From: a virus
Reading direction: 5' to 3' (one strand)
Length of the DNA stretch: 48,983 nucleotides
IMG/VR virus record: IMGVR_UViG_3300032144_000016
Coordinates: 1-48,983 of that record
In this document: positions 37,932-41,042 of the stretch, one piece after another
Layout: each line of letters starts with the position of its first letter
How positions within the stretch are numbered: position 1 is the first letter of the stretch
The notes under the pieces: model-generated
What the model was told of the DNA's origin: nothing
Seen by the model: the letters and a program-made list of their open reading frames with translations, nothing else
Database searches by the model: none
Program-made: the position numbers and the translations under genes

Positions 37932-38068
37932 GGCTTGATGATGCACTCCAGTCCGAAAGCTGCGAGCTCTTCCTTCAGTGCGTGGTTGACGTAGATGGTC
38001 AACAGGCGGCACATGCGCATCCGATGGTGCCAGGCTTTTGCCTTCTGGCGAAACTGCTCGTTGGTCAT
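37928..38068 (-). CDS. small hypothetical protein (46 aa)
   Basis: Not in the ORF track (<60 aa). Sequence MTNEQFRQKAKAWHHRMRMCRLLTIYVNHALKEELAAFGLECIIKP. ATGA coupled at both ends, with high GC3. Confidence 0.5.
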   Translation of the reverse strand: MTNEQFRQKAKAWHHRMRMCRLLTIYVNHALKEELAAFGLECIIKP

Positions 38069-39294
38069 GAATTCACCCATCGGAACTCAGTATACTCCCC
38101 GCCGTTCGTCATGAAACGGTCGATGGTTTCCTCGCCCAGTTCCGCCCTGGCGAGCTTTTGGTTGAAGGACTTGCGTCCGTTGCGCACCGTGGCCCGCCAG
38201 CGCTTCCCCGCTTCCGGGTCTTCGACGCGAACCTTGCCGTGCAGTACGGCCGCTTTGATGTTTTCGATAGCCTGCTCGGCCTGTTGCTTCATGCGCTGAG
38301 CCGCCAGCAGGGCAGCTAGTGCAGTCTCGTCAGTAAGCTGACCGTTGAGCGCTGGGGCGAGCTCGCCCTCGGTGACAGGCGCCATGTGTTCTGGGCAGTT
38401 CAGGCGCTGGTAGCAGCCCTGGCAGTGCGAGCCTGTGACGGCCTCCCCGCGGTTCCGCGCAGCAGCTTCGACCTGCTCCAGGTGGCGCAAGCCCTCAGGC
38501 GAGTCCACACGGTAGATGCGGTCAGCCCAGCGCCATTCGCCCTCCTCTGCAATCCAGAGTCCGGGGCAGTAGGCATCGGCATTGAATACGGCGCACGCCA
38601 TCCAGCAGTAGCAGAGCAACTGAAGCGACTCGGGGCCGTCGAGAGCCGTGAAGCGCGTGCGCTTGATGTCTGCGAGGAACACGACCTTCGTGCCGTCCTT
38701 CGCGTTTACGAGCCAAAGAAAGTCTGCCGTGCCTTCGATGAAAACCAGCGTCGGCATGACGGTAGCTGGGTTCACTGGCGCCCAGCTCTCATAAACCGCC
38801 AGCGGCACTTCCTTCTCCGCATCGTCGTAGCGGAGCAGTGGGCCCTTCGCCGGCTGTGTGTCGGCGGGCTTGTGCCATGACTTCACCAATTCCTGCTCGT
38901 CATCCGTGAGCGACTCCCATTCTCCAGGGGCGAGCGTACCAGCGCAGAGGCCGTGGAATGCGTGCGAGAGGCGCGCGGACTCGCCGGCGCCATGCTCAGC
39001 ACCGAGGCGCGGGGCGAGGCCGCAGTAGCGCGCAATAGGCAGGGAGGAGGGGCGGTTGCCAATCATAGCTTTCTGTGCGTAGTGCCGCACGACTTGGTTT
39101 TTCTGGTAGCGAACGTTCGGAGCGAGGTAGGCAAGCACGTTGTGGGGCTCGCCGTCCACGTCTACCTGGCCGCAGTAGAGTCCGCTGCGATGCGGGTCGA
39201 TGGTGACTGGCTCCCAATCTTGGGAGCGGGAGTCCTGCCAGCGCACACCTAGCTTGAGGCGATACGCTGGCCCGGGTTGGAGTTTAGGCTGCAC
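38065..39294 (-). CDS. Cas4/RecB-family PD-(D/E)XK exonuclease with extra N-terminal ~65-aa module
   Basis: 'EGTADFLW...LADIKRTR...QLLCY' gives the D/ExK/QxxxY motifs, and the Cys cluster is 'RYCG...CQGCYQRLNC'. GTG start. The N-terminal ~65 aa are homologous to the remnant at 39598..39777, and a Met ('MIGNRP') follows that module. Confidence 0.75.
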   Translation of the reverse strand: MQPKLQPGPAYRLKLGVRWQDSRSQDWEPVTIDPHRSGLYCGQVDVDGEPHNVLAYLAPNVRYQKNQVVRHYAQKAMIGNRPSSLPIARYCGLAPRLGAEHGAGESARLSHAFHGLCAGTLAPGEWESLTDDEQELVKSWHKPADTQPAKGPLLRYDDAEKEVPLAVYESWAPVNPATVMPTLVFIEGTADFLWLVNAKDGTKVVFLADIKRTRFTALDGPESLQLLCYCWMACAVFNADAYCPGLWIAEEGEWRWADRIYRVDSPEGLRHLEQVEAAARNRGEAVTGSHCQGCYQRLNCPEHMAPVTEGELAPALNGQLTDETALAALLAAQRMKQQAEQAIENIKAAVLHGKVRVEDPEAGKRWRATVRNGRKSFNQKLARAELGEETIDRFMTNGGEYTEFRWVNS

Positions 39295-39571
39295 GCCTGT
39301 TCCTATTGGGCGAGATCGCGCCGTCGCCGTTGCCGTTGCCGTAGCCGTTGCCGTAGCCGTTGCCGTAGCCGTTGCCGTAGCCGTTGCCGTAGCCGTCGCC
39401 GTTGCCGTAGCCGTAGCCGTTGCCGTAGCCGTAGCCGTCGCCGTAGCCGTTGCCGTTGCCGTAGCCGTAGCCGTTGCCGTAGCCGTCGCCGTTGCCGTTG
39501 CCGTAGCCGTTGCCGTAGCCGTAGCCGTTGCCGTAGCCGTCGCCGTAGCCGTAGCCGATCGGACGGAACAT
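39284..39571 (-). CDS. (Gly-X)n repeat protein 1, X = Tyr/Asn/Asp (95 aa from ATG 39571; 103 aa from ATG 39595)
   Basis: MFRPIGYGYGDGYGNGYGYGNG...NGDGAISPNRNRRAA. All repeat codons are the GC3-preferred GGC/TAC/AAC/GAC. Both termini are conserved with copy 2. Confidence 0.6.
   Translation of the reverse strand: MFRPIGYGYGDGYGNGYGYGNGYGNGNGDGYGNGYGYGNGNGYGDGYGYGNGYGYGNGDGYGNGYGNGYGNGYGNGYGNGNGDGAISPNRNRRAA
39319..39557. repeat. hexanucleotide array (GCCGTW/GCCGTC)n, ~40 units
   Basis: Strict 6-nt periodicity on the + strand; only the 6th base varies (A, T or C, never G). Confidence 0.95.
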
Positions 39572-39597
39572 CAGAGACCCCAGTTCTCTTCTCATGG

Positions 39598-39777
39598 TCA
39601 GGCTTTCTGCGCGTAGTAGCGCATGGGTGAATTCTTCTGGTAGCGCACGTTAGGCGCGAGATACGAGAACACGTTGTGGAGCGCACCGTCCAGCTCGACG
39701 GTACCGAAGTGGAAGCCGCCGGAGAAGTCGATGGTGACGGGCTCCCAAGAGCCGGAGCGCGAGTCCTGCCAGCGCAC
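39598..39777 (-). pseudogene. truncated duplicate of the exonuclease N-terminal module (59 codons from an internal GTG)
   Basis: 'VRWQDSRSGSWEPVTIDFSGGFHFGTVELDGALHNVFSYLAPNVRYQKNSPMRYYAQKA*' aligns with exonuclease residues ~17-76. A 1-nt indel puts the first ~14 homologous codons (KPQLQPGPAF) in another frame, and the GTG start is lost. Confidence 0.55.
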
Positions 39778-39820
39778 GCCTAGCTTGAGGCGAACGCTGG
39801 GCCTGGTTGGAGTTGAGGTT

Positions 39821-40123
39821 TCAGGGGCGCCTGTTTCTGTGGGGCGAGATCGTGCCGTAGCCGTCGCCGTAGCCGTCGCCGTAGCCGTCGCCGTAGCCGT
39901 AGCCGTAGCCGTTGCCGTAGCCGTAGCCGTCGCCGTAGCCGTCGCCGTAGCCGTCGCCGTAGCCGTTGCCGTAGCCGTCGCCGTCGCCGTAGCCGTTGCC
40001 GTAGCCGTAGCCGTTGCCGTAGCCGTAGCCGTAGCCGTAGCCGTAGCCGTTGCCGTAGCCGTTGCCGTAGCCGTAGCCGTTGCCGTAGCCGTCGCCGTAG
40101 CCGTAGCCGATCGGACGGAACAT
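39821..40123 (-). CDS. (Gly-X)n repeat protein 2, X = Tyr/Asn/Asp (100 aa)
   Basis: MFRPIGYGYGDGYGNGYGYG...GDGYGTISPHRNRRP. The ATG overlaps the stop of the upstream 96-aa ORF (TGATG). Confidence 0.65.
   Translation of the reverse strand: MFRPIGYGYGDGYGNGYGYGNGYGNGYGYGYGYGYGNGYGYGNGYGDGDGYGNGYGDGYGDGYGDGYGYGNGYGYGYGDGYGDGYGDGYGTISPHRNRRP
39854..40108. repeat. hexanucleotide array (GCCGTW/GCCGTC)n, ~42 units
   Basis: Same 6-nt periodic array as 39319..39557. Confidence 0.95.
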
Positions 40124-40413
40124 CAGAGACCCCAGTTCTCTGGAACAGGCACGCAGAATATCTCGGCGCCCTCTGGTATGTCGACGTCAGCAATCGGGCG
40201 CAAGTCTACCTTGGGCCCCTTGCCTTGCTCGACCATGGCAGCAAAGCCGATGCTATCCCACTTGAACACATGCAGCGCCCTTGTCAGCAGGATGCGGCCG
40301 TTCGAGCGGGTCACATCGCCCGCGAATATCCAGCCACGGTCAACCACCACCACTGCGCGATTCCCGGCGGCCTGCTTCACATATGTCTCACCATTCACGA
40401 TTACAGTTTCCAC
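40123..40413 (-). CDS. hypothetical protein (96 aa), translationally coupled to Gly-X repeat protein 2
   Basis: GTG start with AGAAAGAG upstream. 'AVVVVDRGWIFAGDV...' looks like a small beta-rich phage family of unknown function. Confidence 0.6.
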   Translation of the reverse strand: METVIVNGETYVKQAAGNRAVVVVDRGWIFAGDVTRSNGRILLTRALHVFKWDSIGFAAMVEQGKGPKVDLRPIADVDIPEGAEIFCVPVPENWGL

Positions 40414-40554
40414 GTTTTCTCTTTCTGGGCGCTAGGCCCGTTCATAGCTGAGAGCCGCAGAACTCCCGGGAAACCCAGGCTCTTACCGACCACCCTGCAA
40501 GGTGGCTGCACTTGGGAGCACGGTTGCAGTCTGTCTCCACTGACACGCTCTCGG

Positions 40555-40596
40555 TCCCGCCCCTGGGAATCGAACCCAGGCGAGGGCGGCTGAAAG
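40555..40596 (-). other. tRNA 3'-half-like element (anticodon-loop to discriminator); not a complete tRNA
   Basis: The minus strand reads CTTTCAG-CCGCC-CTCGC-CTGGG-TTCGATT-CCCAG-GGGCGGG-A. This is canonical tRNA geometry for positions 32-73, including a perfect T arm. No pairing 5' acceptor strand, D arm or 5' anticodon-stem strand lies upstream. Confidence 0.6.
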
Positions 40597-40739
40597 GACT
40601 AGAAACAGCACGCCAGCCGACGGGGAGTGATTATCGAGAAGTGACCTCCTTCCAAGTGTGGCCGCAGGCGCAGCGGACCAGCATGATAGACACGACGCCT
40701 TTTGCCGAAGAGATTCTGCGCTGGATGATTGCCGCGTGG

Positions 40740-40976
40740 CTACAGGTACGGGTCATAGGTGTCCACCATTCCTCCGAGCTTTGCGTCGAGCACGAACCGC
40801 TGGACGTCAGGCTCACTGAATAGCTTCAGGATACCATCCGAGGCCACGGCGCAGTATGGCTTCCCAGAACCAAGGAAACCGTTAGATGCGTAGGAGCGGA
40901 AGACGGACACCTTGAACGTTGCGCCTCTCAGCTCATGGTAGGTGAAGAACCTTCTTGCGATTGGACCTGGCATCAT
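40740..40976 (-). CDS. hypothetical protein (~77 aa), lower-GC moron-like gene
   Basis: A strong GGAAGGAGA precedes ATGATG at 40976/40973. Local GC is lower than in the flanks. Confidence 0.5.
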   Translation of the reverse strand: MMPGPIARRFFTYHELRGATFKVSVFRSYASNGFLGSGKPYCAVASDGILKLFSEPDVQRFVLDAKLGGMVDTYDPYL

Positions 40977-41042
40977 CTCTCCTTCCTGAACGAGGCTACT
41001 ACACGTAGCCAAGTGTTAGCGTTGCGGCGGACAGCCCAGCGG

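Follow-up and report, generated by a model that had tools for sequence, protein, structure and literature searches.

What kind of gene encodes a protein in which every second residue is glycine, and with which of its neighbors does it belong? The question is raised by IMG/VR virus record IMGVR_UViG_3300032144_000016, a 49-kb phage-like contig (60% to 66% GC) analyzed here over its full 48,983 nucleotides (nt; the window). Two genes on its minus strand, GX1 and GX2, encode proteins of the form MFRPI-(Gly-X)40/43-ISPxRNRR, as the original prediction had read them from the bare sequence and as the sequence and Tandem Repeats Finder (TRF) bear out. TRF recovers both arrays with period 12/18 and 90% to 93% matches, and detects no further array of this type in the window. 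GX2 has 43 Gly-X units (X is Tyr in 26, Asp in 9, Asn in 7, and Thr in 1) and GX1 has 40 (19 Tyr, 15 Asn, 5 Asp, and 1 Ala); an upstream in-frame ATG at 39595 would extend GX1 by MRRELGSL. The alternate residues are Gly without exception, always encoded by GGC. The companion claim, that X is only Tyr, Asn, or Asp (TAC, AAC, and GAC), holds except for the final unit of each array, which is Ala in GX1 and Thr in GX2. Immediately upstream, the TGA stop codon of a 96-amino-acid (aa) gene, ORF96, overlaps the ATG of GX2 (TGATG, 40121-40125). The two very probably represent a translated Gly-X polymer obligately paired with a small beta-barrel protein.

The pairing becomes visible in relatives. ORF96 has more than 2300 homologue clusters (about 98 aa), and 434 relatives or loci are present in IMG/VR. 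An ORF96-selected sample was assembled from 80 viral loci, carrying 81 ORF96 copies, that were chosen by ORF96 similarity alone. A Gly-X polymer open reading frame (ORF) lies directly 3' of the ORF96 homologue in 76 of the 81 copies, and in 4 of the remaining 5 the contig ends within 64 nt, with the start of an array already visible. The coupling of the two genes recurs as a start/stop overlap of 1 or 4 nt (TGATG or ATGA) in 70 of these 76 relatives. The polymers begin with a 4- to 8-residue N-terminus, [FM]-[RK]-P-[VI]-G, and a basic C-terminal tail, G-T-[VIC]-[SN]-x-x-R-x-R-R, is present in 62 of 64 relatives; both window copies fit these patterns (MFRPIG and ISP[HN]RNRR). Between the termini are 15 to 75 Gly-X dipeptides (34 to 164 aa in total), X being mostly Tyr, Asp, Asn, or Ser and less often Thr, Phe, Cys, Lys, or His. 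Two elements of the original prediction, the coupling to the 96-aa ORF and the conserved termini, are thus borne out in relatives.

The pairing was also approached from the polymer side, with a pattern-selected sample obtained by scanning IMG/VR for six or more GGC-DAC units (at least 120 contigs). Among the 107 arrays with enough upstream sequence, a barrel gene ends no more than 400 nt 5' of the array in 75; 42 of these are of the ORF96 type and 33 encode the Pfam domain DUF6948 (PF22253). Conversely, 76 of the 84 barrel domains in 1.05 Mb of these loci are directly 5' of an array, and in locus L017 a single ORF holds both DUF6948 and the array. Taken together, these comparisons indicate a large phage family of Gly-X polymer genes that form the second half of a conserved two-gene cassette, following either an ORF96-type or a DUF6948 barrel. 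The junction itself is conserved as well. ORF96 homologues end in Trp-Gly-Leu in 64 of 81 copies (40126-40134 in the window), encoding TGGGG 7 to 11 nt 5' of the polymer start, and a Shine-Dalgarno-like G-run from the conserved Trp-Gly codons is found in 70 of 76 loci. These codons of the barrel gene probably double as the ribosome-binding site of the polymer gene. The sequence of the ORF96/GX junction shows no canonical -1 slippery heptamer.

The DUF6948 branch extends the cassette to cultured phages. Behind each of three independent, genuine DUF6948 genes lies a Gly-X polymer gene that overlaps it; the polymer gene is uncalled in L236 (a contig of a metagenome-assembled genome (MAG), about 2802-2965). 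Polymers paired with DUF6948 contain more Ser and His and for the most part have neither the FRPVG nor the RNRR terminus; His, which the original prediction had described as never occurring, is present in relatives and common in these arrays. In 50,697 cultured-phage records, ORF96-type barrels have no tblastn match, and DUF6948 is present in 15. The gene 3' of DUF6948 in Ralstonia phage NK-7 encodes a 137-aa Gly-Ser/Tyr/Asp polymer annotated as "fibroin heavy chain-like protein", and the corresponding 89-aa polymer of Pectobacterium phage Koroua is listed as a "hypothetical protein". Iodobacter phage PhiPLPE has the polymer ORF unannotated (L237, about 1190-1400), and Vibrio phage IKEMa6-1 has it in a record that carries no annotation. 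For Chlorobiaceae phage CV-1-33 (L242:1486-1731, gene_25), the annotated frame is Ala-Met/Leu/Lys; the Gly-X frame there opens with a separate ATG, preceded by an AGGTGG site, and overlaps the end of DUF6948. With cultured phages of Ralstonia, Pectobacterium, Dickeya, Iodobacter, and Vibrio carrying the cassette, it is directly testable there. MAG hosts of the ORF96 type include Burkholderiales, Dechloromonas, Novosphingobium, Chloroflexota, Planctomycetales, Verrucomicrobiota, and others.

Which frame of the arrays is the product? The original prediction had favored Gly-X mainly on codon grounds. The uniform codons with G or C at the third position are indeed there, but the argument overlooked a third minus-strand frame, (Ala-Thr)n, which is stop-free in the arrays and has acceptable codons. 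It is also the frame of ORF96 and of two ORFs farther 3', one of 59 aa and one of 409 aa encoding a nuclease, and is open from 40413 to 38065 but for four TGA codons. Within it the variable base becomes the synonymous third position of Ala, and its codons (GCT/GCA/GCG and ACG) are acceptable in this genome, in which ACG is the commonest Thr codon. The codon argument within the window therefore cannot decide, and Gly-X was chosen over Ala-Thr because of the comparative data. Throughout the arrays of loci L164 and L203 the repeat is GGC-[T/A/G]AT, which turns the +1 frame into Ala-Met and keeps Gly-X. The degenerate array of L241 is built on GGG and GGA, so that the +1 product changes and Gly-[Tyr/Asn/Asp/Ser/His] is kept, and those of L165, L196, L198, and L205 likewise retain the Gly-X periodicity with other codons. 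In all, 107 synonymous non-GGC Gly codons are tolerated in the arrays of relatives. The Gly-X frame is open in essentially all of the at least 120 pattern-selected contigs, where X can also be Ser, His, Phe, Cys, Lys, or Arg. Together with the 76 of 81 paired loci and the conserved termini, these arrays argue that the Gly-X frame is the selected product, as originally proposed, and that the coincidence of the Ala-Thr frame in the window is fortuitous.

Alleles with the same flanks differ by multiples of 6 nt only (94/96/116/164, 95/101/139, 86/110, and 124/130 residues), the pattern that the original prediction had proposed to look for. Repeat numbers are thus hypervariable, and the changes come in whole hexamers.

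Codon use in the arrays is far more uniform than in the genes around them. GGC accounts for 95% of array Gly codons (2128 of 2239) vs 47% in flanking genes; in loci below 52% GC the values are 96% and 39%, respectively. The dominance of GGC also holds in cultured-phage loci (L237, L238, and L239; the fetched stretch is about 46% GC). Over the arrays of L128-L207 and these three loci, GGC makes up 95% to 96% of Gly codons at any genome GC from 43% to 66%, and about 91% of X codons are NAC, compared with about 55% in flanking genes. The codons are accordingly not the ordinary preference of a GC-rich genome that the original prediction took them for, since GGC stays at 95% even at 43% to 46% GC, against 39% to 47% in the flanks. 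Slippage-driven homogenization explains the uniformity within arrays and the wholesale switch from NAC to NAT (L164 and L203), but not the persistence of GGC across lineages. Queuosine-modified tRNAs decode four codon boxes, those of Tyr, Asn, Asp, and His. The same residues dominate at X (His in the DUF6948-linked arrays), Ser being the main exception; a link to tRNA modification or decoding is conceivable.

For the polymer itself, AlphaFold2 returns no secondary structure (GX2, predicted local distance difference test (pLDDT) score 31.5), and the protein is predicted to be intrinsically disordered. Its composition (Gly, Tyr, Asn, Asp, and Ser) is that of prion-like and FUS-like low-complexity domains. 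Short synthetic peptides of the sequences GYGYGYG and NYNYNYN assemble into amyloid fibrils (PMC8163036, PMC10510724).

Given an alignment of 68 sequences, AlphaFold2 folds ORF96, the partner of the polymer, into a compact beta-barrel that includes one helix (pLDDT 92.4), and the protein is confidently predicted to have an Sm-type fold, a strongly bent five-stranded antiparallel beta-barrel. In a Foldseek search of the PDB, the top 50 matches are almost all Sm/LSm chains (for example, 1i8f and 3by7), those at the top being archaeal, with a best E value of 6.5e-4 and a template modeling (TM) score, normalized to the target, of about 0.6 up to 0.73. Among viral models (BFVD), the best named matches are three DUF6948 proteins (E 6.7e-5 to 5.7e-4, TM 0.57 to 0.70). 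At the sequence level the window ORF96 has no match to DUF6948 (gathering threshold 27 bits), and 6 of 68 ORF96 family members have weak matches to it (best E 0.02). Homology between the two barrels was not significant by pairwise BLAST, profile-sequence, or profile-profile comparison, and it is retained as a shared fold only. ORF96, the polymers, and the 59-aa ORF have no meaningful match in Pfam, PHROGs, NCBIfam, or PADLOC; matches of these small ORFs to TrAA12 and to "serine-rich" entries are compositional, far below threshold, and were rejected. Barrel genes or whole cassettes occur twice on some phage contigs (L214/L215 on one 76.8-kb contig and L217/L218 on one 94.9-kb contig). In some proteins two barrel domains stand in tandem, or a short Gly-X stretch precedes the barrel on its N-terminal side (among L026, L089, P0121, P0122, and P0155).

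The second polymer gene of the window arose by a tandem duplication of about 0.55 kb that also copied a small domain (Table 1). Self-alignment of the region containing both polymer genes gives about 90% DNA identity, and both units open with the last ~20 nt of ORF96 (AGAGAACTGGGGTCTCTGATG). The copied domain is the 59-aa ORF in one unit and residues 17-75 of the 409-aa ORF in the other, which share 66% aa identity (E 2e-28). The linker that separates this domain from the polymer stop differs between the units by indels of +4 and -1 nt and is consequently read in a different frame in each. The originally described overlap of the GX1 stop with the exonuclease start stands if GTG 39294 is the start of the 409-aa ORF, in which case the TAA of GX1 lies 11 nt inside it. 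The duplicated domain of about 60 aa has no homologue in some 240 fetched loci and no match in the four databases named above. A role as third component of the cassette is ruled out, as the domain is missing from all other loci.

Metagenomic contigs very often end inside or just past the start of a Gly-X array (L129, L134, L139, L142, L144, L173, L199, L214, L218, and many of L001-L120). The arrays are therefore assembly breakpoints and assembled repeat numbers are uncertain, including those of the window, whose exact values could be mis-assembled. The arrays themselves are not artifacts, because the same type of array is found in hundreds of independent contigs and in finished cultured-phage genomes.

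Table 1 Positions of the features of the window, and loci in which Gly-X arrays are fused to other domains.
Feature	Position or loci	Strand	Basis or remark
ORF96, 96-aa Sm/LSm-like small beta-barrel protein (predicted), DUF6948-like fold	40123..40413	-	AlphaFold2 and Foldseek; stop TGA overlaps GX2 ATG
GX2, 100-aa Gly-X polymer protein, MFRPI-(G-[Y/N/D])42-GT-ISPHRNRRP	39821..40123	-	Sequence; homologues with the same termini directly 3' of ORF96 homologues
Hexamer array 2, (GGC-[T/A/G]AC)n	39854..40109	-	TRF, sequence
GX1, 95-aa Gly-X polymer protein, MFRPI-(G-[Y/N/D])39-GA-ISPNRNRRAA	39284..39571	-	Sequence
Hexamer array 1, (GGC-[T/A/G]AC)n	39320..39557	-	TRF
Duplication unit 2: last ~20 nt of ORF96, GX2, 59-aa ORF	39590..40141	-	Alignment, mean column identity 90%
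Duplication unit 1: relic of ORF96 3' end (AGAGAACTGGGGTCTCTGATG), GX1, small domain	39067..39589	-	Alignment
59-aa ORF, unit-2 copy of small domain (VRWQDSRS..WEPVTID..YLAPNVRYQKN..YAQKA)	39598..39777	-	Likeness to residues 17-75 of 409-aa ORF
N-terminal ~75 aa of 409-aa ORF, unit-1 copy of small domain, fused in frame to nuclease; internal ATG at 39066	39067..39294	-	Alignment
PD-(D/E)XK (Cas4-like) exonuclease core, within 409-aa ORF	38065..39066	-	PHROG 69 exonuclease E 8.7e-5; PADLOC PD-(D/E)XK model E 6.6e-5; translation with C-terminal CxxCxxxxxC cysteines
~170-aa C-terminal domain (..FVAK..HGET..DWHHRLTGSC..DAYGG..) fused to array	L023, L027, L093, L094, L119, L243		
"V-D-x-L-D-x-GAC-x-DGV" N-terminal domain fused to array, sometimes with same SPNRRRR tail	L011, L021, L117, L120, P0321, P0338		
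DUF7666 fused to array	L036, P0271		
C-terminal domain "..WIVALTGEVVGDEEKYGALTREILGEAI" fused to array	L029, L100		

The window carries its structural genes on the plus strand and an early block on the minus strand, where the arrays are followed 3' by the PD-(D/E)XK nuclease, a 105-aa ORF, an Erf annealing protein, and, farther off, a helicase. The original prediction had tied the polymers to these recombination genes. Relatives do not support this as a rule. The cassette adjoins exonuclease and Erf genes in some of them, and in others small early genes, nucleotide-metabolism genes, or tail genes; synteny is not conserved, and co-occurrence with the small domain is found in none of the ~240 loci. 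Linkage to recombination genes as a general rule was thus rejected, and the exonuclease is context, not a conserved component. What is conserved as a unit is the pairing of the Sm-like barrel with the Gly-X polymer.

Gly-X arrays are also fused to at least four uncharacterized domains (Table 1), for which no Pfam or PHROG function was found. A barrel gene is 5' of some of these fusions as well (L243; weak matches in L027, L093, L094, and L119).

The region from 38000 to 41000 has no megablast match to cultured phages. The phage is very distant from any cultured phage. Most of the large window ORFs tested have no Pfam domain, and the terminase is a sub-threshold match only; no integrase was found among 10 window ORFs scanned. 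Positions 40545-40590 (minus strand) resemble the 3' part of a tRNA or transfer-messenger RNA gene, with a T-arm (CTGGG-TTCGATT-CCCAG) followed by GGGCGGG-A-CC. This segment has a fold z-score of -0.13; neither ARAGORN nor Rfam called anything there or elsewhere in the window. It could be a candidate core of a phage attachment site (attP).

How might barrel and polymer work? In the explanation that we favor, which as a whole (gene family, pairing, and mechanism) has a probability of roughly 0.45, the two proteins would be made together and act as a complex. The polymer would be a disordered multivalent chain, with Tyr as "sticker" and Gly, Asn, Asp, and Ser as "spacer", that self-associates into a condensate or an amyloid-like assembly. 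Early in infection, the basic tail, the barrel, or both may anchor it on nucleic acid or some other target, and the repeat length would then set a tunable valence. The model is likened to Sm/LSm proteins whose Gly-Arg or Q/N-rich tails drive the assembly of ribonucleoprotein (RNP) bodies, with the functions split over two genes. Taken by itself, the condensate or RNP-scaffold mechanism is possible but doubtful. Extended further, the cassette might be a split-gene system by which tailed phages of many bacterial phyla build a membrane-less compartment or amyloid-like scaffold on nucleic acid early in infection, a viral counterpart of the eukaryotic bodies driven by Sm tails, with hexamer slippage as an evolvable valence dial and the GGC/NAC codons as a second layer of selection on translation or slippage; we regard this broader version as speculative and unlikely.

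Several observations weigh against the favored explanation. About 30% of arrays are in other architectures, and GX1 has no barrel gene of its own upstream. The Sm-like assignment of ORF96 is one of predicted fold only (Foldseek E about 1e-3): no Sm1/Sm2 motifs are present, ORF96 and 68 family members have no Pfam LSM or Hfq match at E of 0.1 or below, and a profile search against PDB sequences returned nothing at E of 10 or below. Small beta-barrels also include the peptide-binding SH3 and Tudor folds. By residue count ORF96 is slightly acidic, which makes binding to nucleic acid less than obvious. Its homology with DUF6948 has no support at the sequence level (hhalign E 0.17), and the extreme fixation of GGC hints at an added nucleotide- or translation-level constraint that the model leaves unexplained.

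The alternative that survives best takes the cassette as an anti-defense or host-takeover effector. The acidic aromatic polymer would mimic single-stranded DNA or RNA, or act as a decoy titrating a host nuclease, nucleic-acid-binding protein, protease, or kinase, with the barrel as its chaperone or solubilizer. The cassette is located among small early genes, here and in several relatives just 5' of the PD-(D/E)XK exonuclease and Erf, a position at which lambda and P22 keep anti-RecBCD genes, and its hypervariable length and duplication are typical of arms-race genes. The regularly spaced Asp and Tyr of GX2 and its net charge of -5 would fit a mimic, but GX1 has only 5 Asp and a net charge of -1, many relatives are Asn-, Ser-, Lys-, or His-rich, and the basic tail is general. 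Considering also that synteny with the recombination genes is not conserved and that no PADLOC or anti-defense family match was obtained, we judge such an effector unlikely.

The fusions invite a different reading, in which a barrel of the SH3 or Tudor type binds Gly-X tails and gathers the proteins that bear them (those with DUF7666, the "GAC-DGV" N-terminal domain, or the ~170-aa C-terminal domain), the stand-alone polymers being competitors or scaffolds. Attachment of arrays to at least four unrelated domains, some of them with a barrel gene 5', is consistent with such a tag and receptor, and the conserved barrel residues W52 and W94 could form an aromatic binding surface. Tudor barrels are also known to bind the Gly-Arg tails of Sm proteins (PMC5909452). 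However, no other Gly-X-tagged protein is present in the window, where TRF finds the two arrays only, and this reading seems to us a little less probable still.

An element acting at the level of DNA or RNA is improbable. The (GGCNAC)n arrays would then be iterons, a recombination hot spot, a contingency locus, or a device of codon or tRNA demand, and the ORFs incidental or secondary. This would accommodate the GGC fixation, the queuosine codon boxes, and the frequent breaks of contigs inside arrays. The start, N-terminus, basic tail, and stop are nevertheless all conserved in frame, whole arrays have changed from NAC to NAT with their amino acids unaltered, and the degenerate arrays keep Gly-X with other codons. 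Ser (TCC/AGC) is a common X, so that the queuosine set is not exclusive, and no Rfam match was found.

Still less can be said for a precursor of a ribosomally synthesized and post-translationally modified peptide, or for a silk-type beta-sheet material, either of which is very improbable. The small size of the ORF, its repetitive core, and its conserved flanks would suit the former and alternating Gly the latter, as in the fibroin-like annotation of NK-7. Neighborhood Pfam surveys, however, reveal no modifying enzyme, protease, or transporter family that recurs beside the cassette; the polymers lack a signal peptide and fibroin terminal domains, are 34 to 164 aa long rather than thousands, and occur in an early, intracellular gene context. 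Finally, a read-through polyprotein in which the +1 frame joins ORF96, an Ala-Thr linker, the small domain, and the exonuclease by TGA recoding, as the nearly open frame and synonymous variable base of the window might allow, can be dismissed: TGA, the commonest stop of the window, closes 28 of 48 long ORFs, among them closely spaced structural genes that overlap as ATGA, so genome-wide recoding is unlikely; the stop is TAA or TAG in 11 of the 81 ORF96 copies; and the joined frame is not conserved in relatives, in which it reads Ala-Met (L164 and L203) or Ala-Met/Leu/Lys (L242) and the genes 3' of the array are unrelated.

The cassette is new as a described system. As the original prediction had supposed, no phage function has been described for such proteins: full-text literature searches yielded no description of Gly-X polymers or of their pairing with a barrel, Pfam, PHROGs, NCBIfam, and PADLOC gave no functional match, and DUF6948 appears in Pfam only as an uncharacterized domain. 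If the pairing is functional, a widespread phage cassette (more than 2300 ORF96-family clusters and 434 IMG/VR loci, with DUF6948 besides) has been overlooked or mishandled by annotation pipelines, which in public records have rendered the polymer as fibroin-like (NK-7), as hypothetical (Koroua), in another frame (CV-1-33), or not at all (PhiPLPE). Low-complexity regions of prokaryotes and phages have been surveyed and proved strongly depleted in Asn and aromatic residues, the longest one from a phage measuring 115 aa (PMC6821194); Gly-X polymers are therefore atypical, and a Tyr- and Asn-rich polymer of almost perfect dipeptides is unusual among such regions. If the favored explanation is true, the cassette would provide a natural, minimal, genetically tunable sticker-spacer polymer with a dedicated folded partner, of use for the study of condensates and amyloids in bacteria and of phage early-gene function, and as a biomaterial.

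Among known systems, the likenesses are partial. DUF6948, itself an uncharacterized phage domain, has the same predicted fold and is likewise followed by, or fused to, a Gly-X polymer, but ORF96 falls below its Pfam threshold and the profile-profile comparison is not significant. The paper on the GoF/MotB.1/Frd.2 proteins of T4 (PMC12152347, 2025) presents itself as describing a phage LSm-like fold family for the first time, and it makes no mention of a barrel-polymer cassette. Like ORF96, these are small early proteins of phages for which an LSm-like barrel is predicted and a role connected with RNA is suspected; unlike it, they have no Gly-X partner, are confined to Tevenvirinae, and show no sequence relation to it. 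On the polymer side, the [G/S]Y[G/S] domains of the FUS type and the GYGYGYG and NYNYNYN peptides are similar in composition (Gly, Tyr, Asn, Ser, and Asp) and in predicted disorder. The likeness is one of composition: the phage polymer has a strict two-residue period and stands alone at 34 to 164 aa, whereas the FUS-type sequence is a domain of a large RNA-binding protein. The silk fibroin heavy chain, (Gly-Ala/Ser)n, also has Gly at every second residue, again a compositional likeness only, because in the tiny, intracellular phage protein X is bulky and polar (Tyr/Asn/Asp) and fibroin terminal domains are absent; the 95- to 100-aa window polymers have no Pfam fibroin match and no long (GAGAGS)n blocks. 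A collagen-like phage protein is ruled out by the period, which is Gly-X (2 residues, 6 nt) and not the Gly-X-Y triplet.

Proteins that join a folded domain to a repeat come closer. Hfq has a Gly-rich C-terminal repeat in Acinetobacter and Moraxella. Plant glycine-rich RNA-binding proteins combine an RNA recognition motif with GGYGG repeats (PMC4117745). Both link a nucleic-acid-chaperone fold to a Gly/aromatic low-complexity tail, but as single, cellular polypeptides with irregular repeats. The eukaryotic proteins SmB, SmD1, and SmD3, with Gly-Arg tails, and LSm4, with an RGG or Q/N-rich tail, share with the cassette the combination of an Sm-fold barrel and a low-complexity repeat, and targeting of SmB, SmD1, and SmD3 to Cajal bodies requires their GR dipeptide tails (PMC5909452). 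Compared with these proteins, the phage barrel lacks the Sm1 and Sm2 motifs and resembles them in its predicted monomer fold; X is Tyr, Asn, Asp, or Ser rather than Arg; the repeat is 4 to 8 times longer than an Sm tail and makes up about 85% of its protein; and barrel and repeat are separate, coupled genes.

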